Program-made: the position numbers and the translations under genes
Notes under the pieces: generated by a model
Seen by the model: only the letters and a program-made list of their open reading frames with translations
Database searches by the model: none
Told to the model about the DNA's origin: nothing
From: an uncultured Eubacteriales bacterium
Lineage (GTDB): Bacteria > Bacillota > Clostridia > Lachnospirales > Lachnospiraceae
Reading direction: 5' to 3'
Length of the DNA stretch: 64,000 bases
Assembly (NCBI GenBank): GCA_900314555.1
Contig: OMVQ01000113.1
Location: forward strand, 4,396 to 68,395
In this document: piece after piece, positions 12,556 to 46,286 of the stretch
Position numbering within the stretch: position 1 is the first letter of the stretch
How the letters are laid out: each line of letters begins with the position of its first letter

Positions 12556-13104
12556 TGCATATTTAACAGTTAGAAACAACTAAGAATGTTTAATAAGCTC
12601 TTATTTGCACTTACTTATATAAGACAATTTAACTGCGAATGACTTATTTGACAGATATATTTTTTCAAACTATTGCACTGAATTGCTAATTTGTCGATGC
12701 CAGTTTTTCGCTCTTTTGATTATTTGTATACATTCAATGCACAGACATTTAAACCAAAGAGTCCGTCTCTGACACACACTTGATTTATGACGTATCGTGT
12801 GTGTGAGTTATATGCCGCCAGATGCAAAAGGTCGGTGCAGAGGGGGGCATTTACTCACACCCGATTAAGGAATCTGAAAGCGTGTGTCATAGACGGACAC
12901 CTTTGGCTTAAAGGTCTGTCTGGTGAATGTACACAAAATTTGAGTGAAAAGCTGGCATCTGACAAATTTACGCAATTCATTTCAGACAGTTCGAAAATAT
13001 ATATCTGCAAATATGTCATACCCAGATAAAATGCTTCTCCTTATTAGTAAGTACAAATAAGAGTCTCCTCACGCCACCCCTATTTCTAACTGTTAAAATA
13101 TGCA
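12556..13104 (+). repeat. Family A long palindromic element, copy 1 (central 57 nt deleted)
   Basis: Nested inverted repeats 12556-76/13083-104, 12598-615/13046-63, 12696-713/12942-59; core homologous to 30834-31347 and 45771-46286. Confidence 0.9.
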
Positions 13105-14015
13105 TCTATTCCATTTGCAATTCCACTCACAATCTTATTCTGGTAATCCTCTGTAGCCATTAATCCATCTTCAGTCGGATTAGACATATACCCCATTTCT
13201 ATAATCGTGGTGGGTACGGATGCCCAGTTAATTCCACTCATAGTATCAGTTTCCCATACATATTGTTTTCTTGCACCTGTACTTTCGATATATTTATCTA
13301 ATACGCATTGTGATAATTTTCTGCTTAATCTATAGATATTACCATTATAAGGATTAGATGGTGTCTGACATATTGTCATCGCACCATTTGTACTACTGTT
13401 CTCAGAACCATTAGCATGTATTCTGATAAATGCTTCTGCACCTGCATTATTTGCAATCTGCGCTCTTTCACTGTTACTTATATTAACATCATTTGTACTT
13501 CTTATCATTATGACATTATACCCTCTGGCTTCTAATTCTTTCTGTAATTTGAGCGCAACGCTTAAGTTAAGTTCATATTCAGCAAGTCCACTAACGCAAC
13601 CTGCTGTTCCACTGCTTACTTTCGCCTTTACCTCTGATGCACCCGGTCCTACCGGTTCTTTTTCATTATTACCATGTGCCTGATGTCCGGCATCAATTGC
13701 TACTAGATGTCCTCCGGTTCTTGGTATGTATGAACTTGTCTCCTGTGCGGTTGTGACAGGTTCAGGTGTTGTTTCAGGCACCGTAGTAGTTGTGGGTTCT
13801 TCTGCCTGCGTTTCCTCTGTTGTGGTTTCTTTAGTAGTCTCTTCTAATTTCGTGGTTTCTACATTCTTCTCTGTTGTTTCTGTTATTTTCGTAGTATTTA
13901 CTGCCTTTGCTGTACTACTGTCTTTTGTATTATTTTTATTCTTCTTATTACTTCCACAGGCAGCTAATAATACTGTCATTGTCACTAAAGCAATTAGATA
14001 TATTAACTTCTTCAT
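13086..14015 (-). CDS. N-acetylmuramoyl-L-alanine amidase (Amidase_3), lipoprotein with Thr/Glu-rich linker
   Basis: Lipobox LLAAC; [26 protein letters not shown] Zn-amidase motifs. Confidence 0.92.
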
Positions 14016-14094
14016 TTTTCATACCTTTCCTTATTTTCAGAGTTATAGGATAAAACGTGTTGATAACTAATTTTCTTTATATAATTGTACAAAC

Positions 14095-14124
14095 AAATAC
14101 AGGTCAAATATATGACCTGTATTT
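14095..14124 (-). terminator. Terminator after the Na/Pi cotransporter
   Basis: 12-bp stem AAATACAGGTCA / TGACCTGTATTT. Confidence 0.7.
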
Positions 14125-14131
14125 AAAATTT

Positions 14132-15751
14132 CTAAATATATTCTTCTTCTCTGAATGTAGCAAATGCAATATTCGTAGCATGGTCTGATACTCTTTCGAA
14201 GTTCGAAATTAAATCAGAGAATATTGCTGCTTTAGGACTACATTCGTTCTTAGCCATACGGCGTACATGATTTCTCTGCAATTGTTTTTCTAAATCATCT
14301 ACTTCGTTTTCTAAGTCCATAATTTCCTTAAGATGTTCTTCATTTCTCTCAGTAAATGCTTCTAGCGCAAGTTTTACTTCCTTATTCATAACATCAAACA
14401 TATGTTGTAATTCCTCTGCACCCACTTTGCTGAATTCAATCGATTCATTAAGCTTTGTCTGTGCAAATTCCGCAATATTTTCTGCATGGTCACCTATACG
14501 TTCAATATCACTTACAACATGATAATATCCAGCTATATTCTTCGTCTCACTTACCGGTAGCATCTGATTTATCTTAACTAAGAAATCGGTAATCTTCCTA
14601 CTAAGGAAATCAACTTCATGTTCTCGTTCAAACACTTCATTAATTATATCCTTATTGCCTTTCATTAATGCCTCCATACTTCTTTCAAGGTTATAATTAG
14701 CAATCTCACCCATTCTCTTAATTTCATTTGTTACCTCTATCATAGCAATAGCCGGAGATACCGCTGAATCAAGACTTATATATTTTAATTCATATTTTTC
14801 TTTCTGTTCATCTTCGCCAGGTACAAGCCATTGTGTAAGTTTAACTATCCAGCCTGCAAATGGGAATAAGATAATAACCTGGAATACCTTAAATATAGTA
14901 TGTGTATTAGCTACGGCACGTTTAGGATCAGCTGAAATAACATTAATCCAATGCTCAACATATCCACCAAATGGCAATAATATAAGTAACATTATTATAG
15001 AACCAATAATGTTAAACATAAGATGAATAAGAGCAGCTCTCTTCGCATCTTTCTTACCTGTAAGACCTACTAATACAGCAGATGTACAGGCACCAATGTT
15101 ACAACCTAAGATAACATAGAAACACATTGGTAATTCTACAAGTCCACTTCCTGCCATTGTTACAAGAATACCTACTGATGCAGATGAACTCTGTAATATT
15201 GTAGTGATAACAAGTCCTACTAAGATTGCAACTAAAGGATTCTTAAGTGAACCAATCATCTTCATTACTGCGACAGAATCTTTTATACCTGTCATAGAAT
15301 TCTTCATAAGGCTCATTCCTAAGAATAATGCACCAAAACCAAAAAGTACCTCACCGACTTTATTGACCGTTTCATTCTTAAAGAACATAATCATAACAAC
15401 ACCGGTAATTACAAATATTGGTGCAATACTATCTAAATCAAATGCTACAATCTGTGCTGTTACAGTTGTACCGATGTTAGCACCCATAATTACACCTACA
15501 GCCTGCATAAGATTCATAAGTCCTGAGTTAACAAAACTTACAACCATAACAGTAGCTGCACTTGATGACTGGATAATAGCAGTAAAAATTGTACCGACGA
15601 TAACACCTATAAGTCTGTTCTTAGTACACCACTCTAAGATTGTTTTCATCTTAGAACCTGCTACTTTTTCGATTCCTTCACCCATAAGCTTCATTCCGTA
15701 AAGGAACAGCCCCAATCCCCCAAGCATACTTATTATCATTGTACTGCTCAT
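14132..15751 (-). CDS. Na/Pi cotransporter family protein with PhoU-like C-terminus
   Basis: QSSS repeats, GANIGTT and GCNIG; C-terminal ERIGDHAENI / ERVSDHATNI PhoU motifs. Confidence 0.92.
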   Translation of the reverse strand: MSSTMIISMLGGLGLFLYGMKLMGEGIEKVAGSKMKTILEWCTKNRLIGVIVGTIFTAIIQSSSAATVMVVSFVNSGLMNLMQAVGVIMGANIGTTVTAQIVAFDLDSIAPIFVITGVVMIMFFKNETVNKVGEVLFGFGALFLGMSLMKNSMTGIKDSVAVMKMIGSLKNPLVAILVGLVITTILQSSSASVGILVTMAGSGLVELPMCFYVILGCNIGACTSAVLVGLTGKKDAKRAALIHLMFNIIGSIIMLLILLPFGGYVEHWINVISADPKRAVANTHTIFKVFQVIILFPFAGWIVKLTQWLVPGEDEQKEKYELKYISLDSAVSPAIAMIEVTNEIKRMGEIANYNLERSMEALMKGNKDIINEVFEREHEVDFLSRKITDFLVKINQMLPVSETKNIAGYYHVVSDIERIGDHAENIAEFAQTKLNESIEFSKVGAEELQHMFDVMNKEVKLALEAFTERNEEHLKEIMDLENEVDDLEKQLQRNHVRRMAKNECSPKAAIFSDLISNFERVSDHATNIAFATFREEEYI

Positions 15752-15926
15752 AATTTTCCTTTCAATATACATATAGTTATGTATTTTCTAATATTCAATT
15801 ATAGTATAGACATTTTTTCTCAAAAAAAAGCGTCCTTATATACAATAACTTATATTTCAGAAATAAACAAGTATAATTTTACCTAATTTTAAATTAGATT
15901 TCACATAAATTCATACATAAATTACA

Positions 15927-15982
15927 AAGACCTTTTACAGTTATATATTATATCTTAAAATATATAAACTATAAAAGGTCTT
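15927..15982. terminator. Long AT-rich hairpin after the FHA gene
   Basis: AAGACCTTTTACAGTT / AACTATAAAAGGTCTT (1 mismatch). Confidence 0.5.
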
Positions 15983-16005
15983 ATAAATTCAAAAATATTC
16001 ACAGA

Positions 16006-17256
16006 TTATTTATGCATTCTGAATTCAAAATCTTCATCAGCAAATCTAAGCTGAGCTCCATGCGGAATAAAAATTTCTTCATCATTTCCTATTAACACTC
16101 TGTTTAAATATGTATGATTCTTCGAATTATTGTCTACAACGAAGAATTCTTTACCATGTCTTATAATATAAGCATGCTTATCATCAACAGCTAAGTTGCC
16201 TGATATACAATAATCAACATTTTCCTCGTCTTTACCAATATAGAATGTATCCTTATCAATCTTTATCTCCTGATTATTAGATAATCTGATAAGATATGGC
16301 TCTATCTCAGGTCTTGCAACAATTGGAGGAATTTCTTCTATTTTTTTATCATCTGCCTCGGATACTTCATCTATCTCTGTTGTCTCTTCAGTTACTTTTT
16401 CATCTGTAACTTCTGTATCATCTGATGTCTCTATATTTTTCTCTTCTGATTCAGATTGAATCTCTGCATCGCCATCATTAACAACTTCCTGCTCCGTATC
16501 TTCTTCTGGCTCTTTTTCTACATCTGCATCATTTTTATCTTCTTCTGTTTTGGCTTCTGTATCTATTTCATCTGTTTTCTCTTCTGTTTCAGATTCATTT
16601 TCTGCATATAACTCATCTACATTAACTTTATCATCTTCTGCCTCTGATTCTACAGTTGTATCATCTTCATCTTCTTCGTCCTCTTCATCAACCACTTCTT
16701 TATGTTCAAGTCCGAGCATATCTTCTAATTCATATATGAACTTGTCCAAAGTATATGATTTAGGATTAAGGAATGTGATAAGCTTACCTACATAATCACC
16801 ATTTTCATCTAAATCGAACTGTGAACTGAATAATACGTTCTTAAAGAAATTACATATGTTACCATCATTAATAACTGTAAGTAATGGAAGACATAATAAC
16901 TTAACATCTCCATTTTCAGGATTAACGTATATCTCTTTTCTCTCTAACGAAAATGATGTCCAGTTAATCATATATTCTGACGATTCTTTAATCGTATTTG
17001 CTATACCATAGAATACTTTTAATAATCTGTCTTTTTTAACATATTCACCAAGATATTCTTTCATTGTAACCAATCCGGTTATATCATATCTGAAATATCT
17101 GTCATTCTCCACCTGTACTGGCTGTACCGGTAAGAAACCCTCTATATCATTGTTAACCATCATACCTAATGTAAGATTGTCAATTCTGTCGTTAGATTTT
17201 AGGAGATATTCAGCAGTAACTTTTTCTTCATCGTTCTTTATGTTTAAATCTATCAT
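16006..17256 (-). CDS. DUF6382-like N-domain + acidic linker + C-terminal FHA domain protein
   Basis: C-terminal FYIGK...HAYI...DNNSKNHTYLN FHA-like fold; Asp/Glu-rich middle. Confidence 0.75.
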   Translation of the reverse strand: MIDLNIKNDEEKVTAEYLLKSNDRIDNLTLGMMVNNDIEGFLPVQPVQVENDRYFRYDITGLVTMKEYLGEYVKKDRLLKVFYGIANTIKESSEYMINWTSFSLERKEIYVNPENGDVKLLCLPLLTVINDGNICNFFKNVLFSSQFDLDENGDYVGKLITFLNPKSYTLDKFIYELEDMLGLEHKEVVDEEDEEDEDDTTVESEAEDDKVNVDELYAENESETEEKTDEIDTEAKTEEDKNDADVEKEPEEDTEQEVVNDGDAEIQSESEEKNIETSDDTEVTDEKVTEETTEIDEVSEADDKKIEEIPPIVARPEIEPYLIRLSNNQEIKIDKDTFYIGKDEENVDYCISGNLAVDDKHAYIIRHGKEFFVVDNNSKNHTYLNRVLIGNDEEIFIPHGAQLRFADEDFEFRMHK

Positions 17257-17299
17257 ATATTATTACCTAACCTTTCTGTAATCTTCAATATGTATGTAA

Positions 17300-18598
17300 C
17301 TATTCAACGATCTGTCCAAATATCGCCATCTTAGACATTGTATCTAATACTCTCTGTTCTGTCTTCTCTTTAATGACATTAATCTCACCTATTACATTAA
17401 CGTCTGAAAGATGTAATACACTACAATTTCTATTAACAAATCTGTTATAGAGTATATTAGCCTTCTCAACATAAGAGCAATCATTTACTTCATCATATTT
17501 TCTGATAATCTCAATATTTCTCTCAATATTCTTATTAGAATCAGGTAATCCGCTTCCCACAAATATAACTTTCTTAGCTACATCAAGAACTGAGAAATTA
17601 ATCTTAGAAATTGCACTCTCCAAGTTAACTATAATGATATCATACTTCTCTAACTCTCCAATTGTCTCATATAACTTTTTGAATCCATTTTCCAAATACA
17701 TAACTAATTCAAATGCACAATCTTCATTATTAATGAAGTCAAAGCCAAATTTCATATCTGTTATTATAGCTTTCTCTAAATCTTCTTTCGTAAGTTCCCC
17801 ATTTGCTGCCTTAGTTAAAATATCACTAAATGGCACATCTGTTCTTGAAACATCGAAAAATCTTCTCATTGTGCTGAACTGTTTGAAATCAAGATATAAA
17901 ATATTAGTGTCACTGTCTGCATTAGCTATACCAAGTGAAATACCTGCTGTCGTGCTGCCCTCACTATTTCCAGCCGAAATAAATGCATACACATCAGGAG
18001 TTCTACGTTTCTCTCTGATTCTTTCTTCCTCGGCTTTTCGCTCTTCTTCTAATCTCTTCTGCTCTTCTTCAGCAGCCTTTCTTTCAGCCTCTAATCTTTC
18101 CTCTTCAGCCTTTCTCTCTGCCTCAAGTCTTTCTTCTTCGGCTTTTCTTCTCTCTTCTTCAGACTTTCTTTCAGCTTCTAATCTTTCTTCTTCGGCTTTT
18201 CTTTCAGCCTCTAATCTTTCTTCTTCGGCCTTTCTCTCTGCCTCTTTCTTCTCAGCTAATAATTTATCATAGTTCTTGCCGATATTATATAACTCATTAG
18301 CAATATCCTTAACTTTCTGATACTTGCATACTACCGGTGTTCCATCTTCCTCTTTAACTGATTTTAATTCTGATAAATATACTACTGCACATTCCTCCGG
18401 TATCTGGGAAATATCGTAGTTAATCATCTTATTAATTGCAAAAACCTTTACTTCGTGTGATTCTATTACTGATAAAACATCTTCTGTACTGTTACATGGA
18501 AATACCTGTAATTTTTTAGAAAATCTTTCACGCAAAGCAACCAATACCCTGTTTTGATAGTTCTGATCCTGATCTAAAATTGCTACCCTGATTTGCAT
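17300..18598 (-). CDS. REC-like / coiled-coil repeat / degenerate ParA-CpaE-like protein
   Basis: N-terminal IRVAILDQD receiver-like strand, (LEAERKAEEER)n repeats, degenerate P-loop SAGNSEGSTT, LYLD strand. Confidence 0.6.
   Translation of the reverse strand: MQIRVAILDQDQNYQNRVLVALRERFSKKLQVFPCNSTEDVLSVIESHEVKVFAINKMINYDISQIPEECAVVYLSELKSVKEEDGTPVVCKYQKVKDIANELYNIGKNYDKLLAEKKEAERKAEEERLEAERKAEEERLEAERKSEEERRKAEEERLEAERKAEEERLEAERKAAEEEQKRLEEERKAEEERIREKRRTPDVYAFISAGNSEGSTTAGISLGIANADSDTNILYLDFKQFSTMRRFFDVSRTDVPFSDILTKAANGELTKEDLEKAIITDMKFGFDFINNEDCAFELVMYLENGFKKLYETIGELEKYDIIIVNLESAISKINFSVLDVAKKVIFVGSGLPDSNKNIERNIEIIRKYDEVNDCSYVEKANILYNRFVNRNCSVLHLSDVNVIGEINVIKEKTEQRVLDTMSKMAIFGQIVE
18033..18250 (-). 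repeat. Imperfect 33-bp coding tandem repeat (LEAERKAEEER)
   Basis: Repeated units such as TCTAATCTTTCTTCTTCGGCTTTTCTTTCAGC on the + strand. Confidence 0.85.
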
Positions 18599-18661
18599 AC
18601 TAGTACCTTTCCTTTTCTTTTATTTTTACACGAAACAACGTCACAAATTCATAATTCTATT

Positions 18662-19555
18662 TTATAAATTCGCCTCTGATATGTCAAGTAATATCTGCCT
18701 TTTTAGTGCGTTTAAATCAGAGAATTTTCTCTCTTCTCTTATGAATTTTATAAACTCAATTTTCACTTCTCTATCATAGATTTCTTCGCTAAAATCTAAT
18801 ATATGAGTTTCGACTACAATTCTTCCGTCATCTTTAACTGTTGGATTAATTCCGACATTAGTAATACTCTTAAAAACCCTTGAATCAATGTGTGTATTCG
18901 TCTTGTATACACCTCTTGGAGGCAGAATTTTATTCTCATCAGGACTTATATTAATAGTTCTGGTATCTATCTTTCTTCCATTCTGTTTTCCAGCTACAAC
19001 CTGTCCTTTTATAAAATAATTATAGCCAAGCATTTTGTTAGACATCTCTATCTTGCCTGCTGTAAGATAGTCCTTTATATTTGAACTGCTGACCTTTTCA
19101 CCATCTGACATAACATCATCTGCAACTATAAGTTCATATCCCGACTCGTCTGCATACTTCTCTAACATATCTACATTTCCACGTCTGTTTCTTCCAAAAC
19201 AGAAATCTCTGCCTGTTACAATTACCTTTGCGCCCATTCTTTTAACTAACACTTCTCTAATAAAATCTTCAGGCTCAATTGCCATAGTTTCTTTATTAAC
19301 AGGATAGAATACAAGATTATCTATACCTAATTCATTACATATATCAATTCTTTCAGCCTTAGTTGTCACACTTGGCAGATGTTTTATTCCTGTCGTATCA
19401 AATGAAAAAAGTACCGTTTCATAACCATATTCTTTCTTTTTCTCATTAATAATGTTAATAAGTCTCTGGTGTCCTAAATGAAATGCATCAAATTTACCTA
19501 ATGTTACTGCCGAATTATTAACACAAATATCCTTTGTCTCATCATAGATATGCAT
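18662..19555 (-). CDS. ribF: Bifunctional riboflavin kinase/FAD synthetase
   Basis: GKFDAFHLGHQ, DFCFG, VSSSNIK, TNVGINPT, ETHILDF. Confidence 0.95.
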   Translation of the reverse strand: MHIYDETKDICVNNSAVTLGKFDAFHLGHQRLINIINEKKKEYGYETVLFSFDTTGIKHLPSVTTKAERIDICNELGIDNLVFYPVNKETMAIEPEDFIREVLVKRMGAKVIVTGRDFCFGRNRRGNVDMLEKYADESGYELIVADDVMSDGEKVSSSNIKDYLTAGKIEMSNKMLGYNYFIKGQVVAGKQNGRKIDTRTINISPDENKILPPRGVYKTNTHIDSRVFKSITNVGINPTVKDDGRIVVETHILDFSEEIYDREVKIEFIKFIREERKFSDLNALKRQILLDISEANL

Positions 19556-19581
19556 ATTCTTTCACACTTTCTCCGTTTCTG
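19556..19581 (-). repeat. Family B terminal remnant supplying the ribF ribosome-binding region
   Basis: ATTCTTTCACACTTTCTCCGTTTCTG matches 57360-57386 with one gap and one mismatch. Confidence 0.55.
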
Positions 19582-19585
19582 AGTA

Positions 19586-20557
19586 TTAAGCCATAAACAT
19601 TTTCTCAGGCTTATATAATCTACTTTCCTTATCTATTTTATATACTGCGTAAAATCGTCCCTCGCAATAGACTCTGTATAACAACTGATTATTGGCATCA
19701 TCTCTGGTTTCATTACGTATCTGAGCTGCAATTCCATCAGTATTATCTGCATCTTTATCTGTTTCCATAAACATTTCAGAAGTTAATACATTTCCATTTA
19801 ATAACAGCTTTTTAAATCTTTCCTTAACATTTAATTTCGGATAATCAAGAATATCCTCTGTTTTAATTAATATTCCCGATGCTTCTAATCTGTCATCTGC
19901 TACAATCTGTTCAATTTCTGAAAGTTTTACGCTGTCTGTAAGCTTAAATATACCTGTCTGAGTTCTTAATAAATATCCCATACAGCCATATACGCCTAGT
20001 TTATCGCCTATATCATTGCATAAGGTTCTTATATATGTTCCCTTGCTGCAATTAACTCTGATTCTTATAACAGGAAGATTTATTTCTAATATGTCAATTC
20101 CATATATATAGATATTTCTTGGTTTTCTCTCTACTTCAATTCCCTCACGCGCTAAATCATATAGCTTTCTGCCATTTACTTTAAGAGCAGAATACATTGG
20201 TGGAATCTGGGCATAATCCCCCTCGAAGCTCTTAATGGCATTAATTATCTCTTCCTCTGATAATTCAATTGCACCATTATATTTCTCTATAACTTCACCT
20301 GTCATATCCTGTGTATCTGTCTTTAAACTGAGAACTAACTCTGCTTCATAAGTTTTTCTCTTTTCCATTATAAGGTCACATAATTTCGTCGCATTTCCTA
20401 TACAAATCGGAAGCACACCCTCCGCCTCCGGATCAAGTGTGCCTGTATGTCCAATTTTTTTAGTTTTTAATATACCTCTTAATTTTGCAACAACATCATG
20501 TGATGTAAAACCTTTTTCTTTATATACGTTGATTACACCATTAATATTATTGTTCAT
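19586..20557 (-). CDS. truB: tRNA pseudouridine(55) synthase
   Basis: KIGHTGTLDP catalytic motif, PPMYSALK, CSKGTYIRTL. Confidence 0.96.
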   Translation of the reverse strand: MNNNINGVINVYKEKGFTSHDVVAKLRGILKTKKIGHTGTLDPEAEGVLPICIGNATKLCDLIMEKRKTYEAELVLSLKTDTQDMTGEVIEKYNGAIELSEEEIINAIKSFEGDYAQIPPMYSALKVNGRKLYDLAREGIEVERKPRNIYIYGIDILEINLPVIRIRVNCSKGTYIRTLCNDIGDKLGVYGCMGYLLRTQTGIFKLTDSVKLSEIEQIVADDRLEASGILIKTEDILDYPKLNVKERFKKLLLNGNVLTSEMFMETDKDADNTDGIAAQIRNETRDDANNQLLYRVYCEGRFYAVYKIDKESRLYKPEKMFMA

Positions 20558-20588
20558 TCTAATCCTCATTTCCTAGCGATTTCTCATA

Positions 20589-21924: not shown

Positions 21925-21949
21925 AGACAAAACCCTGCCTTTCTATAAT

Positions 21950-24526
21950 CTATCTTGGCACTTCCTGCATAATGTATGCTTCTACGATGTCGCCCTCTTT
22001 TACATCATTGAATTTCTCAAATACAAGACCACATTCATAGTTAGATTTCACTTCTTTTACATCATCTTTAAATCTCTTAAGTGATGCTAACGCACCCTCG
22101 AATATCTGCTCGCCTTCTCTTGTAATTCTTACGCTGCAGCCTCTCTGGAATACACCGTCAAGTACATAAGAACCTGCGATTGTTCCAACACCTGAAGCTT
22201 TAAATAACTGTCTTACCTCTGCATGACCGATTACTTTCTCTTCAAATACAGGATCTAACATACCTTTCATTGCTGCTTCCACATCTGCAATAGCCTGATA
22301 AATAACTCTGTATAATCTTAAGTCAACTTTTTCTCTTTCAGCTATCTCTTTAGCAAGATTATCTGGTCTTACGTTAAAGCCGATTATAATTGCATTTGAT
22401 GCAGATGCTAAGATAACGTCTGATTCGTTAATTGCACCGACACCGGCATGGATAACTTTAACTACAACTTCATCATTAGATAATTTTGTAAGACTGTTCT
22501 TAACTGCTTCAACAGAACCCTGAACATCAGCTTTGACAATTAAGTCTAACTCTTTAAGTTCGCCTTCCTGTATCTGGTTAAATAAGTCATCTAATGACAT
22601 CTTTGCTTTAGCTTTAGAACCCTCAAGAAGTTTTTCTCTTCCGTCTTTGATAAATGTTTCAGCAAAGTTTCTTGCCTCTTTATCATTTTCTGTTGCCACA
22701 AATACTTCACCTGCATTTGGAACACCATTAAGTCCTAAGATTTCAACAGGAGTTGATGGAGTAGCTGTATTAACTCTCATTCTCTTATCATTAACCATTG
22801 CACGTACTTTACCATAGAACGAACCTGCTGCAATTGCATCACCTACATGTAATGTACCTTTCTGTACTAATACTGTAGCGACAGGACCACGTCCCTTATC
22901 AAGCTGTGCTTCTATTACAAGACCTCTTGCCTTTCTGTCAGGATTAGCCTTAAGTTCGCATACCTCTGCTTCAAGAAGAATCATCTCAAGAAGTGTATCG
23001 ATACCTTCTTTAGTATGTGCAGATACAGGAACAAATATTGTATCTCCACCCCAGTCCTCAGCAACTAATTCATATTCTGCTAATTCCTGTTTAACTTTAT
23101 CTATGTTAGCGCTTGGCTTATCAATCTTATTAACTGCAACGATGATGCTTATTCCTGCTGCCTTCGCGTGGTTAATAGCCTCTACTGTCTGTGGCATTAC
23201 ACCATCATCTGCTGCAACTACTAATATAGCTATATCTGTTGACTGTGCACCTCTCATACGCATTGCTGTAAATGCTTCATGTCCCGGTGTATCTAAGAAT
23301 GTAATCTGTTCGCCATTAACCGTTACTGTGTATGCACCAATATGCTGTGTAATTCCACCGGCTTCTTTAGCTATGACATTTGTCTGTCTGATTGCATCAA
23401 GAAGTGATGTTTTACCATGGTCAACGTGGCCCATAACACATACAACAGGTGGTCTCTTTACTAACTTGCTTTCATCTTCTTCATCTTCTCTTAACAATTC
23501 TTCGATGATATCAACTTTTTCTTCCTGCTCTGCAATAATATCATATTCTAATGCTATCTCCTGAGCTGTATCAAAATCAATTTCCTGATTAATTGTAACA
23601 ATCTGTCCCTGCATAAATAATTTCTTAACAAGTGCAGATGGCTGAATCTTCATCTTATCAGCAAGTTCTTTGATTGTAAGTGTCTCTGGAAGAATAATCT
23701 CTTTGATTGTCTCTTCTTCTTTCACAGGCTGCTGTTTAACAGGCTGTGAATTGTTATTCTTTCCATTATTTTTACCATATGAATTATTGTTATTCTGGTT
23801 ATTATTTCTGTTGTTACGGTTATTCTGATTATTTCCGTTATTACGGTTATTACCATTATTCTTATTGTTCTGGTTGTTTCCGTTATTATTTCTATTCTGA
23901 TTATTATTTCTGTTATTCTGATTGCCGTTCTGGTTATTATTCTGATTGTTTACATTATTGGAATTTCCACCATTGTTCTTATTCTTCTGGTTATTTCCAT
24001 TATTCTTATTGTTCTGGTTGTTTCCGTTATTATTTCTATTCTGATTATTAGAATTAAAGTCATTTTTCTTATTCTGACCGTTGTTCTTTTTCTTTCCTGC
24101 ATCAGAATTATTTGCACTGTTCTGTGGGTTATACACCTGGGTTATATGTGCTTTTTTACCATCATTATTATCTTTTGATGCATTTTTCTTATCTGTATTT
24201 GATGCTTCTTTTGAAACATTCTTCTCATCATTTACTGCTTCTTTTACTTCTTTTTTCTTATCTGCCTGTTCATTAACGGATTTTTTATCTGTTTCTTTAT
24301 TCTCTACCTTATTATCAGGTTTCTTATCCGCTTTAACATTTCCTGATTTCTCGCCACCTTTACCATTCAATGCACTTACAGCCTTTCTGGCTCTGTCAGC
24401 CTCTTCCTCTGTAATTGAACTTGTGTGACTTTTTACTTCTATTCCATTATCTGCTAAAATCTGCTTTAATACCTTATTATCTAAGCCAAGCTGTTTAGCA
24501 AGTTCATATACTCTAATATTTGCCAT
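21950..24526 (-). CDS. infB: Translation initiation factor IF-2 with Asn-rich N-terminal region
   Basis: [26 protein letters not shown]; start ATG 24526 behind GGAGG. Confidence 0.98.
23853..24050 (-). repeat. Exact 54-bp direct repeat within the Asn-rich IF2 region
   Basis: 23853-23906 identical to 23997-24050 (encoding [18 protein letters not shown]). Confidence 0.9.
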
Positions 24527-24539
24527 TCTTCTACCTCCG

Positions 24540-30799: not shown

Positions 30800-30833
30800 G
30801 TATTTTTTCTTGACATCTTACATATTTTACATC

Positions 30834-31347
30834 TCAAACTTCATAAATATCGAATTGCTCTATCATCATATATCAGACAAACTTTGTATATATGAATATT
30901 TAAACATATGCTTCGAATTGCTAATTTGTCGGTATCATCTTTCTGCTCTTATGATTATTTGTATTCATTCAATGCCCAGACATTTACGTGGAGTTATCCG
31001 TCTCTGACACACACTCGATTTATAACGTATCGTGTGGGAGTTTATGCCGTCATATGTAAAAGGGCGGTGCAGTAAATTTCCGTTCAAGCGAAGCGCGTTT
31101 GATTTACTGCACCGCAATAATCTCTACAGATGACGGCATTTACTCCCACTAGATTAAGGCATACGAGAGTGTGTGTCATAGACGGACAACTTCGCTAAAA
31201 TGTCTGTTCAGTGAATGTATACAAAACTTGAGCAGAAAGATGACACCTGACAAATTTACGCAATTCTTGCAAAAGTTCAAATATTCATATATACAAATTT
31301 GGCTGCATACAGATTATCTGGTTCAATTCGATATTTATGAAGTTTGA
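30834..31347 (+). repeat. Family A long palindromic element, copy 2 (514 bp)
   Basis: Perfect 24-bp terminal inverted repeat TCAAACTTCATAAATATCGAATTG; nested stems to an apical TCAAGCGAAGCGCGTTTGA hairpin. Confidence 0.92.
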
Positions 31348-31350
31348 ACA

Positions 31351-31399
31351 TATAATACAAAAGATATGCCACTTAACTGACATATCTTTTTGTATTATA
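31351..31399 (-). terminator. Terminator hairpin of the GGDEF gene
   Basis: TATAATACAAAAGATATG / CATATCTTTTTGTATTATA. Confidence 0.65.
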
Positions 31400-34643: not shown

Positions 34644-34656
34644 ATAATTCTCCATT

Positions 34657-34835
34657 CCGCAGGCACAAAGTGTCGGAGGAATCGCGAGTCAAATGTCAGA
34701 TTTGACTCTGCGATAGATGCTAAATGTGGTGCCTGCAACACATTTAGCCGTGCGAAAGAATTGGTGCATCAGCACAATTCTTTCACACTATTCTCCTTAA
34801 ATAATCGCATCAGCATTATTTTTCACACTGTTCTG
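34657..34835. repeat. Family B multi-hairpin cassette between smc and ftsY
   Basis: Four tandem hairpins; last one (34750-34788) is 37/39 identical to 57333-57371; a degenerate extra hairpin lies at 34799-34835. Confidence 0.85.
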
Positions 34836-34854
34836 ATATCACATAATTATACAC

Positions 34855-38415: not shown

Positions 38416-38442
38416 ATATTAACAACCTTTCTGTCATTACAT

Positions 38443-39129: not shown

Positions 39130-39306
39130 TTCTGTCCTTCCTGCTTAAAAACATATTCGCATCACTTCCATTACTTTAAAGGAAATATCTCATAAATGTA
39201 ACTCTTAATACTATAAATAATTTATATTCTAAAACTCAAAATATTAAATTTCAAAAGTTAAATTAAAGAATATATCATAAATATAATTATTACCTTTAAA
39301 ATAATA

Positions 39307-39385
39307 AAAGTGAAAAGTAAAGAATCGCATACTTTGAATATTCTGTATTCTTAGAATACTCTGCAAATTCTTTACTATTCACTTT
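39307..39385. terminator. Long hairpin directly after acpP
   Basis: AAAGTGAAAAGTAAAGAAT / ATTCTTTACTATTCACTTT. Confidence 0.5.
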
Positions 39386-39391
39386 AAAATT

Positions 39392-39625
39392 CTAGTTGTT
39401 CATTGCAGCTTTAATCTGTTCTACAGCATCTCCAACTGTTGCAATTGACTCAGCAGCTTCGTTTGGAATCTCGATATCGAATTCTTCTTCAATTCCCATA
39501 ATAATCTGGAAAACGTCTAATGAATCTGCTCCTAAATCATCTACGAAAGTAGTCTCCATTGTTATATCCTCTGGGTCAACGCTTAATACCTCAGCTATAA
39601 TTTTCTGTAATTTTTCAAATTCCAT
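39392..39625 (-). CDS. acpP: Acyl carrier protein
   Basis: DDLGADSLD phosphopantetheine motif. Confidence 0.96.
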
Positions 39626-39736
39626 TATAATACACACCTTTCTGAATTCAAATAATAATTTAATCAGATTTATATTTTTAATATAAATTTGCTTTTAAGT
39701 ATTTATTAAACAGCTTTTAACATTTTCAAATGTATG

Positions 39737-40753
39737 TTATTTCTCTTCAAACAGAAGTTTCTCTTTGATTTTCTCATTAATCTTCTGTTCTTTGAAATTA
39801 ACACACTGAATTATTGAATTACAAACTTCCTTAGCTTTAGAACTTCCATGAGTCTTTACAACTAATCCATTCAATCCTAATAATGGCGCTCCACCATATT
39901 CATCTGTCTGGAATGATTTAAGCGTCTTCTTAAGTGCCGGTTTGATTAATAACGCACCAATCTTAGTTCTGAGTGATGACATAAGTCCCTCTTTAACTTT
40001 GGCAATTAATGTGTTACCAACACCTTCATATAATTTAAGAATAACATTTCCAACAAATGCTTCGCTGACTATTACGTCTGCATATCCTGATGGAATATCT
40101 CTTGCTTCAATGCTTCCGATAAAGTTAATATCAGGACAATTCTTAAGAAGTGGAAATGTCTCTTTAACTAATGCATTTCCTTTCTCTTCTTCAGCACCTA
40201 TATTGACGATAGCTACTCTTGGATTCTTGACACCTACAATGTTCTCCATATAGATTGAACCCATCTTCGCAAACTGTACAAGATGTGATGGTCGTGCATC
40301 AACATTAGCACCACAGTCAATAAGTAAAGCTACTCCATCTTTCGTTGGAATAAGAGGTGCAAGAGGTGGTCTTTCGATTCCTTTAATTCTTCCAACGATT
40401 AACTGACCGCCTACTAGAACCGCCCCGGAACTTCCTGCTGATACAAATGCATCTGCCTGATTGTTCTTAACTAAATTCATAGCTACAACAATCGAAGAAT
40501 CTTTCTTTCTTCTTATTGCATTAACCGGTGGTTCTTCTGTCTGTATAACCTCAGTTGCATTCACAACTTCTATTTTATCTTTGTTATATTCATACTTCGA
40601 TAATTCCTGATTAACAACATCTTCCATACCAACTAAAATTACCTTGATATCTTCACAGGAATTAACGGCATCTATTGCACCCTTGACAATCTCTGTCGGA
40701 GCATTATCTCCGCCCATAGCATCAACTGCTACAACTGTAATCTCTTTCTCCAC
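39737..40753 (-). CDS. plsX: Phosphate acyltransferase PlsX
   Basis: VDAMGGDNAP, SAGSSGA, DCGANVD, GNVILK, KTHGSS. Confidence 0.96.
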   Translation of the reverse strand: MEKEITVVAVDAMGGDNAPTEIVKGAIDAVNSCEDIKVILVGMEDVVNQELSKYEYNKDKIEVVNATEVIQTEEPPVNAIRRKKDSSIVVAMNLVKNNQADAFVSAGSSGAVLVGGQLIVGRIKGIERPPLAPLIPTKDGVALLIDCGANVDARPSHLVQFAKMGSIYMENIVGVKNPRVAIVNIGAEEEKGNALVKETFPLLKNCPDINFIGSIEARDIPSGYADVIVSEAFVGNVILKLYEGVGNTLIAKVKEGLMSSLRTKIGALLIKPALKKTLKSFQTDEYGGAPLLGLNGLVVKTHGSSKAKEVCNSIIQCVNFKEQKINEKIKEKLLFEEK

Positions 40754-41060
40754 TTATAAAATACCCAGCATATTGCTACCCATATAAGTAAAGGATATTT
40801 GGGTCCTTTTTTATTTTCCTTTACCTCTATAAAACTTACTTATGTAAGTCTCTAACATAATATACTAAATAGCTAAATAAAAATCAACATTAATTTTAAA
40901 TTTTGTATACAGTTAATGTTAGACATTCATAACCAAGTATTCGTTTGTCATACATACTCTCATTTACCTTAATCGTTTGCAGGTAAATGCTGTTCTCTGC
41001 AAAGTTTATTACATTTGAATATCTTACTATTAACTGTATCCAAATAATTAGCACACAAAA

Positions 41061-41096
41061 AATGTCATAACCTGTATTTTACAAGTTATGACATTC
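41061..41096 (-). terminator. Terminator after rpmF
   Basis: AATGTCATAAC / GTTATGACATT with an A-tract on + (U-tract on minus). Confidence 0.7.
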
Positions 41097-41154
41097 CTTT
41101 GAGAATGAATCTCTAAATAAGTTATCCGTAATACGAACTACTCATTTCTAATAA

Positions 41155-41334
41155 TTAATCAACTGATATTATTTCTTTTTTGTTGTATGAACCACAAGCT
41201 TTACATACTCTATGTGGCATCATTAATGCTCCACATTTGCTGCATTTAACTAAGTTTGGAGCGCTCATTTTCCAATTAGCTCTTCTCTTATCTCTTCTAG
41301 CCTTTGAGCTTTTATTCTTTGGACAAATAGACAT
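41155..41334 (-). CDS. rpmF: 50S ribosomal protein L32 (absent from the supplied ORF track)
   Basis: Manual translation MSICPKNKSSKARRDKRRANWK...CSKCG...HRVCKACGSY, 59 aa, Zn-ribbon type. Confidence 0.96.
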   Translation of the reverse strand: MSICPKNKSSKARRDKRRANWKMSAPNLVKCSKCGALMMPHRVCKACGSYNKKEIISVD

Positions 41335-41340
41335 GGTCTG

Positions 41341-41868
41341 TTACACCTCCTTAAAATTGTTGAAAATGTCACGAATTTTTGACATTCTAGGGTCTAATTC
41401 TGTGGTATCACAGTTACAAGTCTGTGAATTAAGATTTGCCCCACATCTATTACAAATTCCTTTACAATTCTCACTGCAAAGAACCTTCATAGGCAAATTA
41501 ACAAGTATTTCATTATAAATAAGCTTTTCCACATCAAGCATATTATCCTGAATATATGGCTGCTCATCTAACGACTCTGTCTTGTCATTTTCCGACTCAT
41601 TCATGTCAATCTCTTTATTTACTTTGATGTTCATATCATACTTCACATCTTCTAAACATCTGTCACACGGTATCATCAATGATAACTCAATCTCTGTTGC
41701 CAATGTAAATGTTCTCTTTCCAGTGTTACGAAGCTTAATAAGAACTGGTTCTTTCTTAACTATTTCGTAATCACACATCTTAGATATAAATCTTGACATT
41801 TCTATGTCTGCACGAACATCTAACTCTTTATCAATAGTTGATAAAAGTTCGGATAAGTCAATCAGCAT
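41341..41868 (-). CDS. yceD: YceD/DUF177 23S rRNA accumulation protein
   Basis: CDRCL, LPMKVLCSENCKGICNRCG, DPR; directly upstream of rpmF. Confidence 0.92.
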   Translation of the reverse strand: MLIDLSELLSTIDKELDVRADIEMSRFISKMCDYEIVKKEPVLIKLRNTGKRTFTLATEIELSLMIPCDRCLEDVKYDMNIKVNKEIDMNESENDKTESLDEQPYIQDNMLDVEKLIYNEILVNLPMKVLCSENCKGICNRCGANLNSQTCNCDTTELDPRMSKIRDIFNNFKEV

Positions 41869-41898
41869 AAATTACCTCTTTTCTAATCGCACTTGAAT

Positions 41899-41927
41899 AT
41901 TATAACCATAGGTATTGTGTTTGTCAA
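41899..41927 (-). promoter_or_regulatory. Consensus sigma-A promoter of yceD-rpmF
   Basis: TTGACA-N17-TATAAT. Confidence 0.8.
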
Positions 41928-41980
41928 CCAAAAATTTTCAAAATCTTGTATAAACTTGTCCAATTATTAAATATATATTA

Positions 41981-43174
41981 TTATTTTACAAGTTCTAATG
42001 TCTCTTTAGCTATTTTTAATTCTTCATTTGTTGGTACTACAAGCACTTTAATCTTTGAGTTGTCTGTAGAGATGACAACATCTTCTCCTCTTTTAGCATT
42101 CTGTTCGTCATCTATTTCCACGCCTAAGAATGTAAAGTATGAACAAATCTCTTTTCTTACTATTGCATTGTTCTCTCCAAGTCCTGCTGTAAATACTATT
42201 GCATCTATTCCGTTCATTGCTGCTGCATATGCTCCGATATATTTAGCAACTCTGTAGCAATATGCTTCAATTGTCATTCTGGCTCTTTCGTCTCCTGCAA
42301 GCATAGCATCTGTTATATCTCTGAAATCACTACCGATTCCTGATAATCCAAGAACACCTGATTCTTTATTAAGGATATTCATAACTTCATCTATGGTCTT
42401 ATTCTCTTTATGGGCAAGAAACTCTACTATAGCAGGGTCTATACTTCCTGAACGTGTTCCCATAATAAGTCCCTCTAAAGGTGTAAGTCCCATACTTGTA
42501 TCTACTGATTTACCACCATCAACTGCACATACACTTGCACCATTTCCAAGATGGCATACAACTGTCTTAAGTTCTTCATATGGTCTGTCTAAGATTTCGG
42601 CAACTCGTTTTGAAACAAAACTGTGTGATGTTCCATGGAAGCCATATCTTCTCACCTTATAGTCTTCATAATATTTATATGGAAGTCCGTATAAATATGC
42701 TTTAGCAGGCATAGTCTGATGAAATGCAGTATCAAATACGGCTACCATCTTTGTATCAGGCATTAACTCCTTGCATGCCATTATTCCAATAAGATTGGCC
42801 GGATTGTGTAATGGTGCTAAATCGTTACATTCCTTTATAGCTTCAATTACATCATCATCAATTATTACTGATTTGGCAAATTTCTCTCCGCCATGTACGA
42901 TTCTGTGTCCTACTGCACCAACATCACTTAAATCTTTAATAACACCTGTCTTTGCATTTGTAAGTGCATTTATAACTAATTCAACTGCCTTTTTATGATT
43001 TGGCATTGCCTCTTTCACTATCTCTTTATCAAGACCTGCCGGCTGATATACTAACTGACTGCCATCTAAGCCTATTCTTTCGCATAATCCTTTTGCTAAT
43101 ACGCTATCATCTTCTGAATTAATTAACTGGAATTTCAATGACGAACTTCCGCAATTGATAATAAGAATCTTCAT
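41981..43174 (-). CDS. ackA: Acetate kinase
   Basis: INCGSSSLK, GHRIVHGG, APLHNP, RRYGFHGTSH, CHLGNGAS; start ATG 43174. Confidence 0.97.
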   Translation of the reverse strand: MKILIINCGSSSLKFQLINSEDDSVLAKGLCERIGLDGSQLVYQPAGLDKEIVKEAMPNHKKAVELVINALTNAKTGVIKDLSDVGAVGHRIVHGGEKFAKSVIIDDDVIEAIKECNDLAPLHNPANLIGIMACKELMPDTKMVAVFDTAFHQTMPAKAYLYGLPYKYYEDYKVRRYGFHGTSHSFVSKRVAEILDRPYEELKTVVCHLGNGASVCAVDGGKSVDTSMGLTPLEGLIMGTRSGSIDPAIVEFLAHKENKTIDEVMNILNKESGVLGLSGIGSDFRDITDAMLAGDERARMTIEAYCYRVAKYIGAYAAAMNGIDAIVFTAGLGENNAIVRKEICSYFTFLGVEIDDEQNAKRGEDVVISTDNSKIKVLVVPTNEELKIAKETLELVK

Positions 43175-43236
43175 TTTCTCACTCAGTTTCCTTTCCTTAC
43201 TATAATTATTATTTGAGATTAATATATTTAAAAAAC

Positions 43237-44241
43237 TTAAACAAGTTTTCTCTGCTGTGCCTGTACTGCTGTAATAGCTACAACACCAACGATATCTGAT
43301 GATGAACAACCTCTTGATAAATCATTGATAGGCTTAGCCATACCCTGTGTTAATGGACCATAAGCTTCTGCTTTTCCTAATCTCTGAACTAACTTATATC
43401 CGATATTACCTGCATCAAGGTCTGGGAAGATCAAAACATTTGCATTGCCTGCAACTGTACTTCCAGGCGCTTTTAATTTAGCTACTTCCGGTACAAGTGC
43501 CGCATCTAACTGTAACTCACCATCTGCTGTTACGTGAGGATAATTCTTCTTTAATATCTCTACTGCATCTGTAACCTTTGTTACATCAGGGTGTTTTGCA
43601 CTTCCCTTTGTAGAATGTGATAATAATGCACAAATTGGTTTCTCACCGACTAACATCTCAAATGATTTAGCTGACGATTCTGTAATAGCTGCAAGTTCTT
43701 CCGGATTAGGATTCTGGTTAAGTCCTGCATCCGCAAATACAAATGTACCATCTGCACCATATTCACAATCAGGTACACATACTACGAAGAAACCTGATAC
43801 TAATTTTGTTCCCGGTTTAGTCTTAATAATCTGAAGTGATGGCTTTAATGTTGAAGCTGTAGAATGGCAAGCACCTGAAACTACACCATCTGCATCGCCA
43901 AATTTAACCATCATACATGCATAATACATAAAGTCATTCATCAAAAGGTCTTTAGCCTGTTCAGGAGTCATACCCTTTGACTTTCTTAATTCATAAAATA
44001 CTTCTATGTAATCCGGTGTTTTGCTAAATGTATATGGGTTAACTATTCTTGCTCCTGAGATATCTAATCCTTTGCTGTTCTCTGCAATAACGTCTTCTGT
44101 ACCAATGATAATAAGATTTGCAATTTTCTCTTTAAGAATAATCTCTGCTGCCTCAAAAGTTCTTCTGTCCATTGATTCAGGTAAAACAATTGTCTTAATA
44201 TCTTTTTTTGCTCTTTCTTTAATATTATCAATAAATCCCAT
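43237..44241 (-). CDS. pta: Phosphate acetyltransferase
   Basis: LPESMDRR, FADAG, DGELQLDAA, FPDLDAGNIGYK, DLSRG. Confidence 0.96.
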   Translation of the reverse strand: MGFIDNIKERAKKDIKTIVLPESMDRRTFEAAEIILKEKIANLIIIGTEDVIAENSKGLDISGARIVNPYTFSKTPDYIEVFYELRKSKGMTPEQAKDLLMNDFMYYACMMVKFGDADGVVSGACHSTASTLKPSLQIIKTKPGTKLVSGFFVVCVPDCEYGADGTFVFADAGLNQNPNPEELAAITESSAKSFEMLVGEKPICALLSHSTKGSAKHPDVTKVTDAVEILKKNYPHVTADGELQLDAALVPEVAKLKAPGSTVAGNANVLIFPDLDAGNIGYKLVQRLGKAEAYGPLTQGMAKPINDLSRGCSSSDIVGVVAITAVQAQQRKLV

Positions 44242-44347
44242 AATTTAATTTCCTTTCCTGTATAATTAATCCGCATACTTTGTGATATTATAACGCATTT
44301 TCCCTTTGTATACAATATCTTTAAACGTACTAAATTCAATACATTTA

Positions 44348-44376
44348 TTGATATTTTTTTAACAAAATGTTATCAT
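44348..44376 (+). promoter_or_regulatory. Putative promoter of tmcAL
   Basis: TTGATA-N17-TATCAT with TGn extension. Confidence 0.45.
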
Positions 44377-44418
44377 AAATATAACGTATTTTATAACACA
44401 ATATGAAAGGAGTTTATA

Positions 44419-45702
44419 ATGAAAACCGTTGGAATTATAGCTGAATTTAATCCATTTCACAATGGTCATGCATATCTTATTGAAAAAGCAAGAGAAATTA
44501 CCAATGCTGACCACGTTATAGTTGTTATGAGTGGCAACTTTGTCCAGAGGGGCGCACCCGCATTTATGGATAAATTCACAAGAGCTGCCATTGCCCTTGA
44601 GAATAATGTAGACCTTGTCCTCGAACTTCCGGTTTGTTATTCTATGTCAAGCGCTGCTTATTTTGCAACCGGTGCAGTAGCAACTTTAGATAAATTAAAT
44701 GTCGTTGATTACCTTTGTTTTGGCTGTGAAAATGATGATTTAGACCTGTTAAATCTTATCGCAGATATAATAATAGATGAAGATGAATGTTATAGTGAAG
44801 CATTACAATCATATTTAAAAACCGGTATGTCATTCTCAAGAAGCCGCGAAAATGCAATTATAAAATCTCTTTCTCTGCGTGGTGTCAATATGAGCTCAGA
44901 GGAGCTTTCACTTATAATTTCATCTCCAAACTCTATTCTTGCCATTGAATATATTATTGCAATGCGTAAGTCTGGCAGCAAGATGATTCCGGTTCCAATT
45001 AAACGTTTAGACAAAGGCTACCATTCATCTGATTTAGACGGACATTTTGCAAGTGCAAGTGCGATCAGAAAACTCTTTGGTGGCAAATCAATATTTACAT
45101 TCAACAATGTCAAGGAAACACTTTCTGATATCGTCCCTGCAAATTGTATGGAATTACTTGAAAATGAATACAAGAAAACTTACCCTATTGTCTCTGATGA
45201 TTTCAGTCCATTAGTCGGTAATGAGTTAATTAAAGCAAGATATAATAATACAGAGATTAATAATCTCTTTGATATAACAGATGACTTAGCTAACAGAATA
45301 ACTAATCTCTCAGGTGCATATGAAGCTTTCGACAGTTTTGTTAATACCTGTAATTCTTCTATATTTACATCTTCAAGAATTTCGAGAATTCTCTTCTATC
45401 TGCTATTCAATTATACTAAAGATGATTACTTTACTTTTAAAGATGAGGGATACGTTTACTACTTCAGAGTTCTTGGTTTCAATAAAGCCCATAACAGCTT
45501 ACTTACTGAAATTAAAACTAACTCCGACATTCCTCTTATCACTAAAATCTCGAATGCATTTTCAGTTCTGTCTGAGAACGGCAAACGTATGTTATCAATT
45601 AATATGATGGCTGATGAGATTTACAGATTAGTAAGTATTGATAAATACAATTTCTCAATACCAAAAGAACAGCAATATGGTGTTATAATAAAAGATGAAT
45701 AG
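44419..45702 (+). CDS. tmcAL: tRNA(Met) cytidine acetate ligase (YlbM-family nucleotidyltransferase)
   Basis: AEFNPFHNGH HIGH motif, SGNFVQRG, PNSIL, SASAIR. Confidence 0.88.
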   Translation: MKTVGIIAEFNPFHNGHAYLIEKAREITNADHVIVVMSGNFVQRGAPAFMDKFTRAAIALENNVDLVLELPVCYSMSSAAYFATGAVATLDKLNVVDYLCFGCENDDLDLLNLIADIIIDEDECYSEALQSYLKTGMSFSRSRENAIIKSLSLRGVNMSSEELSLIISSPNSILAIEYIIAMRKSGSKMIPVPIKRLDKGYHSSDLDGHFASASAIRKLFGGKSIFTFNNVKETLSDIVPANCMELLENEYKKTYPIVSDDFSPLVGNELIKARYNNTEINNLFDITDDLANRITNLSGAYEAFDSFVNTCNSSIFTSSRISRILFYLLFNYTKDDYFTFKDEGYVYYFRVLGFNKAHNSLLTEIKTNSDIPLITKISNAFSVLSENGKRMLSINMMADEIYRLVSIDKYNFSIPKEQQYGVIIKDE

Positions 45703-45721
45703 CATATTTAATTGCTTATAT

Positions 45722-45767
45722 AAAAATGAGTTGATATACATTTTAATTTATACATCAACTCATTTTT
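45722..45767 (+). terminator. Terminator of tmcAL
   Basis: 14-bp stem AAAAATGAGTTGAT / ATCAACTCATTTTT plus T-tract. Confidence 0.75.
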
Positions 45768-45770
45768 TCA

Positions 45771-46286
45771 CTCAAACTTTGCACATATATGTTTGAATTA
45801 AATCATCTGTATTAAGTGAATTTGCATATATAAATATCGAAACTTTTGTTAGAAATGCTAATTTGTAGATATCTTTTTCGGCTCTTTTGATTATTTGAGT
45901 TCATTCAATGCCATACACTTAAAACGATGTGTTCGTCTATGCCACACACTTGATTTATGACGTATCGTGTGCAAGTTAATGCCGTCAGATGCAAAAGGGC
46001 GGTGCAGCAAATCACCGTTCAAGCAAAGCGCGTTTGATTAGCTGCACCGTAATAACCTATGCAGATGACGGCATTTATTTGCACTAGATAAAGGAATATG
46101 AAAGCGTGTGTCATAGACGTACATCTCGTCTTAAGTGTATGTCTGTTGAATGTACACAAAATTTGAGCCGAAAAAAAGATATCTTACAAATTTACGCAAT
46201 TCTTACAAGATGTTTCGATATTTATATCTGTCAAATTTACTTTAAAAGATGAATATAAACTGCAACATATATGTTCGAAGTTTGAG
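45771..46286 (+). repeat. Family A long palindromic element, copy 3 (516 bp)
   Basis: Termini CTCAAACTT / AAGTTTGAG; same nested stems and conserved loops as copy 2. Confidence 0.92.

Follow-up and report, generated by a model that had tools for sequence, protein, structure and literature searches.

The window analysed here (64,000 nt, positions 4,396 to 68,395 of contig OMVQ01000113.1 in assembly GCA_900314555.1 of an uncultured Lachnospiraceae bacterium) contains three dispersed copies of a long imperfect palindrome. The available evidence indicates that these repeats probably belong to an orphan family of foldback miniature inverted-repeat transposable elements (MITEs), which are non-coding, approximately 515 bp in length and bounded by ends of the type found in insertion sequences (ISs) of the IS4 family. 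The family was previously unannotated, and it is best filed as a new instance of an already known kind of element, the MITE with IS4-family ends. Events provoked by the long hairpin are central deletions, losses at short direct repeats, the formation of solo arms and the in-place inversion of its core by arm-to-arm recombination. The way in which DNA palindromes behave can explain most of the covariation of its arms.

The genome of the window (2.66 Mb in 124 contigs, 33% G+C) carries the repeat at approximately 68 places. About 28 of these hold full-length copies, which are mutually ~80% identical, and many of the copies are located at contig ends. The family is therefore far larger than the three copies recognised in an earlier, sequence-only reading of the window, and even the window contains, in addition, a solo arm and a small remnant (Table 1). 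No repeat or IS of at least 300 bp other than the hairpin family is present in the assembly, and no reading frame stays open across the copies. The number of occupied places, the lack of a conserved frame and the IS-type ends (see below) support the earlier proposal of a non-autonomous, MITE-like mobile hairpin. With regard to possible transposase genes, an open reading frame (ORF) of approximately 420 aa (contig C2:1618-2886) was judged by eye only to be IS630-family transposase-like, and no further transposase-like ORF was noticed by eye on the short contigs (<7 kb) that were read.

The elements are bordered by terminal inverted repeats of 17–20 nt (CTCAAACTTCGCACATA.AT), represented in the young subfamily by CTCAAACTTCGCACATACAT and its inverted partner. 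The same motif, within 1–2 mismatches, forms identical multi-copy ends located at many contig ends in the genome of a congener (G011) and in that of a member of another genus (G022), both of which are devoid of the hairpin core. In one contig of the former (G011:C41), an end with the first 15–17 nt of the CTCAAACTTCGCACATACAT motif is placed 73 nt after a partial ORF scoring 276.5 bits to NCBIfam NF049925, an IS4 family (DDE) transposase (cut-off 250), and in a further genome (G050:C67) a fragmentary gene for a transposase of this type has a comparable end next to it. A tblastn search with the G011 transposase fragment revealed no homolog in the window's genome. Since the NF049925 transposase is absent from this genome as well as from that of the sister species Bovifimicola ammoniilytica, the copies may be considered orphan foldback MITEs.

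The sequence-only reading had not recognised the repeat as belonging to any described family, a view that has to be revised, as its ends do match an IS-end family. Its statement that there is no transposase nearby and no consistent target duplication was confirmed for the window's genome. Mobilisation as single-stranded DNA (ssDNA) by an HUH enzyme, in the manner of repetitive extragenic palindromic (REP) sequences or palindrome-associated transposable elements (PATEs), had also been put forward. This does not agree with the absence of any match to the Y1 (HUH) transposase domain PF01797 in the window's genome (B. ammoniilytica has fragments only), nor with ends that match those adjacent to an IS4-family DDE transposase gene. 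The absence of PF01797 also led us to reject membership of the REP/REPIN-RAYT or IS200/IS605 PATE groups. As a separate observation, the multi-copy element of G011 and G022 (loci L133-L157), whose identical ends are CTCAAACTTCGCACATA[A/G]AT...TATGCACCTTGAAAATTCAATA, breaks many contigs and probably represents an IS or MITE of this IS4 subgroup that is still active. These genomes also have a second family of ends, ~85% identical.

Folding analysis supported the initial description of the three window copies as hairpins along nearly their entire length (z = -16 to -22), and the coordinates assigned to them proved correct. Copy 2 forms a single rod with an RNA minimum free energy of -245 kcal/mol (z = -21.7), and its minus strand folds just as strongly (z = -26.7). 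For copies 1 and 3, z values of -16.1 and -17.5, respectively, were obtained with DNA parameters. When the three sequences are aligned, the mean column identity is 74%, and the compensatory arm segments and conserved motifs quoted in the sequence-only reading were confirmed.

To this small set we may add an alignment of 47 cores from three clades (404 columns). RNAalifold predicted 95 pairs, 59 of which had changed on both sides; shuffled alignments gave an average of 35.6 such pairs, and none of 500 reached 59. Paired cells amounted to 95.8%, as compared with 86.2% in the shuffles and 31–46% in slid-register controls. The high level of pairing, together with the excess of two-sided changes over shuffles, shows that the complementarity of the arms is actively maintained. 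Thus, the arm covariation on which the sequence-only reading had been based, and whose lack would by its own account have spoken against it, has statistical support.

The pattern of recent changes does not point to a strand-specific RNA. Among the rare mismatches (found in at most 2 sequences and taken as recent) G.T and A.C are equally frequent (30 and 31, respectively), i.e. without strand bias. When the strand on which most local genes lie is taken as a proxy for replication, 25 elements agree with it in orientation and 20 are opposed to it; relative to neighbouring transcription in tandem contexts the numbers are 5 and 7. Both the absence of strand bias in the mismatches and the lack of any link between orientation and transcription or the replication proxy argue against such an RNA. 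The replication-strand data (25 vs 20) also led to the rejection of a bias-based case for an ssDNA mechanism. The common plus orientation of the three window copies is a local accident, since the genome as a whole has elements pointing either way, and between the species an orthologous copy has been flipped in place. It may be added that internal copies are divided into 25 plus and 9 minus by contig orientation, which should be arbitrary, with no bias by dominant gene strand.

Mean conservation is equal in unpaired (0.857) and paired (0.860) columns, which likewise argues against a strand-specific folded RNA. Conservation is instead arranged in blocks symmetric on both arms, some of which hold near-invariant asymmetric loops, e.g. 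GATTTATGACGT opposite TAAGGAAT. The earlier description of the unpaired segments as nearly invariant therefore applies to some internal loops and does not extend to unpaired positions on average. That loops are on average no better conserved than stems was, like the match to an IS end, among the outcomes which by the account of the sequence-only reading would speak against it.

Often the palindrome does not stop at the limits of the family consensus but takes in sequence peculiar to the copy, so that hairpins may reach ~615 nt. At four loci the filled allele contains an inverted duplicate of adjacent host DNA (22–52 nt) that the empty allele lacks. In the window this is exemplified by copy 1, whose right outer arm is the end of a native amidase gene and whose left outer arm is an inverted copy of it. 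All 8 congeners examined share the amidase C-terminus (ANGIDxYF), and past the stop codon their DNA is unrelated and contains no element; this identifies the right side of copy 1 as native. As described in two reports (PMC13100816, PMC5941160), polymerase template switching homogenises and expands the arms of inverted repeats. The inverted copies of host flanks match these accounts and, together with arm-to-arm recombination, point to a DNA-level cause for the covariation.

Comparison with B. ammoniilytica, a congener whose flanking sequences are 91–96% identical to those of the window's genome, made it possible to follow the fate of individual copies. Most of these are orthologous in both species, which indicates that the family is older than the species split; paralogs are ~80% identical and orthologs 93–98%. 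At approximately 9 orthologous sites the element is present in one species, while the other has an empty site or only a remnant, so that the presence/absence polymorphism sought after the sequence-only reading does exist. Whether these differences reflect insertion or loss is mostly ambiguous, and several are clearly deletions. At two sites B. ammoniilytica retains only the element termini, at a third the deletion took the element plus the start of the next gene, and elsewhere a solo arm stands opposite a full copy in the window's genome. The copy 1 locus has undergone independent deletions: the apex is missing in the window's genome, and in B. ammoniilytica the apex is present and the outer arms are missing. 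Short hairpins of 83–112 nt in the window's genome are internal-deletion derivatives with differing breakpoints, and the remnant at 51809-51869 of the window resembles the leftovers that B. ammoniilytica has at two of its sites. One orthologous locus has an inner part of ~440 bp that is 93–100% identical only when read in the orientation opposite to that of the flanks and outer arms; the core was therefore flipped in place by arm-to-arm recombination.

At several sites one of the species has a cleanly empty allele. The stretch of the window containing copy 2 (30820-31377) is missing at the orthologous site of B. ammoniilytica, where a single terminator hairpin is found. Insertion after the species split was not accepted as the explanation for such sites, including that of copy 2, as the copies in question have no paralog above ~83% identity, compared with 93–98% for orthologs, which makes precise loss at least as likely as recent insertion. 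Clean loss could have occurred via hairpin-stimulated slippage between short direct repeats; hairpin-stimulated precise excision is known for transposons flanked by inverted repeats (Tn5/Tn10).

Taken together, we propose that the copies were once spread by an IS4-type transposase acting in trans and would now be immobile relics. Mechanisms that affect long inverted repeats at the level of DNA would be mainly responsible for preserving their near full-length palindromy and the covariation of their arms. These mechanisms, template switching within the molecule and gene conversion between the arms, would homogenise the arms and extend them inwards as well as outwards, the outward extension copying the host flank in inverted form. 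The conserved inner blocks may have been kept by selection on still-transposing lineages, or for some cis function, rather than copy by copy at their present sites.

Several observations weigh against this explanation. Target duplications lack consistency: 7-nt AT-rich direct repeats occur in ~5 of 11 young copies, where they are inseparable from palindromic flank extension, and elsewhere direct repeats are 5 to 25 nt long or absent, with palindromic flanks again confounding. In each of two draft genomes the link to an IS is provided by a single end adjoining an incomplete gene; no complete IS having both ends together with an intact transposase was recovered, and the similarity between IS and MITE ends stops after ~19 nt. 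In old copies the outermost tip bases vary between copies and remain complementary, which is unusual for tips recognised by a transposase. As regards the strand, the frequent (fixed) mismatches lean to the plus strand (15 G.U vs 7 A.C) and one G.U pair is kept in 45 of the 47 copies, which provides weak evidence for a preferred strand. Finally, the inner core of ~230 nt, comprising the loops GATTTATGACGT and TAAGGAAT and the apex CGTTCAAGC...GCGCGTTTGA, consists of blocks that are near-invariant across three clades only ~66% identical overall. Solo inner cores without IS4 ends were found at at least 8 loci with shared boundaries (TGTCCGTCTATG... / ...CATAGACGGACA), and in a tree (185 nt, weak support) they are interspersed with full-length copies. 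This conservation of inner blocks across genera exceeds what an IS4-type transposase, acting on the ends only, would need, and is not explained by it.

The last two sets of observations are those from which a different view of the family may be developed, in which the ~230-nt inner hairpin is itself the mobile or functional unit, a folded single strand (ssDNA or RNA) recognised via its loops. It would be a structure-selected module spreading or being copied independently of the IS4 ends, e.g. by a form of copying, hairpin-primed or based on template switching, from which the inverted target duplications would result as well, with the IS4-type MITE as only one of its vehicles. The presence of GCGAAGC, a very stable DNA mini-hairpin, in the apex fits this view, as do the solo cores with common boundaries, the near-invariant blocks and the wobble pairs mentioned above. 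We nevertheless regard it as unlikely, since no candidate enzyme was found (the genome lacks an HUH transposase), recent mismatches show no strand bias, orientation is random with flips in place, and individual copies decay freely; besides the weakness of the short tree, the solo cores might be truncation products. Possible likenesses of the conserved loop to the nick sites of rolling-circle elements (CTTGAT), and of the ends to dif/Xer sites, are backed by no test.

Location near genes bears on two further explanations. Among scorable copies, 18 of 34 are placed between convergent genes, i.e. beside 3' ends, and many adjoin terminators. REP, ERIC and Correia elements serve elsewhere as terminators, insulators or mRNA-stabilising hairpins, and relic copies might similarly be kept because they serve the host, e.g. 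as insulators, as terminators working in both directions or, between convergent genes, as 3' hairpins that stabilise mRNA. This would be compatible with a MITE origin and with the retention of most copies in both species since their split, but we consider it rather improbable, as neutral insertions likewise survive at gene 3' ends, and the many copies lost or truncated in one species show no sign of constraint. The same location, the significant covariation and promoter-like hexamers within the arms could also be expected of a rod-like family of structured non-coding RNAs (ncRNAs), with promoters of their own or expressed as 3' untranslated regions, which had been the second suggestion of the sequence-only reading. 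The repeat is not a catalogued RNA: a search of the 64-kb window against Rfam 15 gave no match at the gathering score, and chance-level miRNA or snoRNA matches only at E values of up to 10. This result speaks against an ncRNA; moreover, both strands fold equally well, orientation relative to neighbouring genes is unbiased, in-place inversion is tolerated, G.U equals A.C among recent changes, the hairpin ends vary and include host sequence, and copies have been deleted or truncated independently in the two sister species. An ncRNA family therefore appears very improbable. The IS4-type foldback MITE remains our preferred explanation.

The closest parallel is provided by the MITEs and mobile insertion cassettes of the IS4 family, such as the IS231-derived MIC231 of Bacillus cereus, which are likewise non-coding, multi-copy and bounded by the terminal inverted repeats of DDE IS4-family elements, need a transposase in trans and may persist as orphans. 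The present family differs from them in that nearly all of its 515 bp form one imperfect hairpin with covarying arms, that its inner core of ~230 nt has been conserved between genera and is found on its own as well, and that target duplication is unclear, with the cognate transposase found only in other species. The Correia (CREE/nemis) elements of Neisseria and the ERIC/IRU elements of enterobacteria resemble it in being imperfect palindromes that are scattered between genes and form hairpins, in having no transposase of their own and in being enriched near gene ends. In contrast, they are only 100–170 bp in length (Correia elements having a TA duplication and an IHF site), show no sequence similarity to our family and lack IS4-type ends. 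Integron attC sites, imperfect palindromes of 57–141 bp with R'' (RYYYAAC) and R' (GTTRRRY) boxes, were rejected as a parallel: the element is ~4–9 times too long, and its ends and apex, as read from the sequence, do not fit the R-box consensus.

REPINs are also hairpin-forming, non-autonomous repeats for which compensatory changes have been reported (PMC3116915, PMC3337134), but they are ~100 nt long, are composed of two REPs and need a single-copy HUH (Y1) transposase (RAYT) flanked by REPs (PMC3116915, PMC3337134), an enzyme type that this genome lacks. Template switching (PMC13100816, PMC5941160) combined with hairpin-stimulated excision accounts for arm covariation without selection, for the inverted host flank at the hairpin base and for clean loss at direct repeats. 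These are general DNA processes that define no element family, and they leave the conserved asymmetric inner loops unaccounted for.

The family belongs to Lachnospiraceae of the rumen and gut, among which its distribution is patchy. Of 61 relatives compared, 3 carry it; besides the window's genome these are the congener B. ammoniilytica and a member of a different genus, in which identity is 66–69%. The family was found in 2 of 15 congeners, and in 2 of 400 Lachnospiraceae genera when a strict gapped pattern was applied to one genome per genus. A motif scan of one genome per species detected the family in B. ammoniilytica, Lachnospira sp. UBA2821 and several metagenome-assembled genomes of rumen Lachnospiraceae. 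BLAST searches of a plasmid database revealed unannotated intergenic copies on a megaplasmid of Lachnospira eligens ATCC 27750 and on a plasmid of Agathobacter rectalis; the former (NC_012780.1:317598-317954) is 74% identical and located between cls and a NUDIX gene of the 627-kb replicon. The terminal 74 nt matched no plasmid IS in the same database, and a phage database gave no match to the element.

Two loci outside the window deserve mention. In contig C103 (1234-6032) two copies in direct orientation, ~90% alike, enclose 4 kb of ordinary genes (a TetR-type regulator etc.), and at the corresponding site B. ammoniilytica has one element only and lacks this block, which reflects either deletion of the block by recombination between elements or its insertion. 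Mobility genes beside copies were looked for in this block and in 1.1–1.35 kb of extra DNA in B. ammoniilytica and were rejected, as both encode ordinary genes. Just upstream of a short-core copy in B. ammoniilytica (L055:3380-3470) lies a cluster of small G+C-rich hairpins (GCTCCGC...GCGGAGC, GCCGCAGGCGG, GTCGCAAGCGAC), missing from the orthologous site in the window's genome, which may represent another small repeat family.

Table 1. Features of the hairpin family in the window (positions are those of the 64,000-nt stretch).
Feature	Position	Strand	Description
Copy 1	12556..13104	+	Foldback element lacking the ~57-nt apex; outermost arms host-derived
Left outer arm of copy 1	12553..12577	+	Inverted duplicate of the 3' end of the native amidase gene; reverse complement of 13083-13106
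Copy 2	30834..31347	+	Full-length foldback element; degenerate IS4-type left end CTCAAACTTCATAAATATCG at 30833-30852
Conserved inner core of copy 2	30990..31200	+	GTCCGTCTCTGACACAC -> CGATTTATAACGTATCG -> apex CGTTCAAGCGAAGCGCGTTTGA -> GATTAAGG -> GTGTGTCATAGACGGAC
Copy 3	45771..46286	+	Member of the young subfamily; IS4-type terminal inverted repeats intact
Left terminal inverted repeat of copy 3 (IS4-type end)	45771..45790	+	CTCAAACTTTGCACATATAT; at most 2 mismatches to CTCAAACTTCGCACATACAT
Right terminal inverted repeat of copy 3 (IS4-type end)	46267..46286	-	Inverted partner of CTCAAACTTTGCACATATAT
Solo arm of a decayed copy	57..169	-	Consensus positions 112-226; BLAST identity 82.8% over 116 nt
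Small palindromic remnant	51809..51869	.	Outer-arm sequence only; BLAST to consensus positions 25-65 and 450-487, both strands

The window contains some other repeats. A pair of 90-nt direct repeats (34707-34796 and 57290-57379), 77% identical and listed in the sequence-only reading as the 'Family B' cassette, includes small hairpins, and two long arrays were noted, one with a periodicity of 9 nt (23766-24104) and another with a periodicity of 33 nt (18033-18268), both of which probably lie within repetitive, low-complexity coding sequence of the minus strand.

The element accounts for ~1% of the genome and for many of the breaks in its assembly, and annotators of Lachnospiraceae genomes, including that of L. 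eligens ATCC 27750, gain a name for a hitherto unannotated repeat. The comparison of the two species constitutes a natural record of the behaviour of long bacterial palindromes, comprising central deletions, solo arms, flip-flop inversion and clean excision, as well as outward growth in which host DNA, a gene end among it, is copied in inverted form. Since DNA palindromes can acquire statistically strong covariation without functioning as RNA, covariation alone is no evidence of a structured RNA. The asymmetric inner fold, kept across genera within an IS4-type MITE, would be of still greater interest if it were true that this fold has a function or a means of spread of its own.

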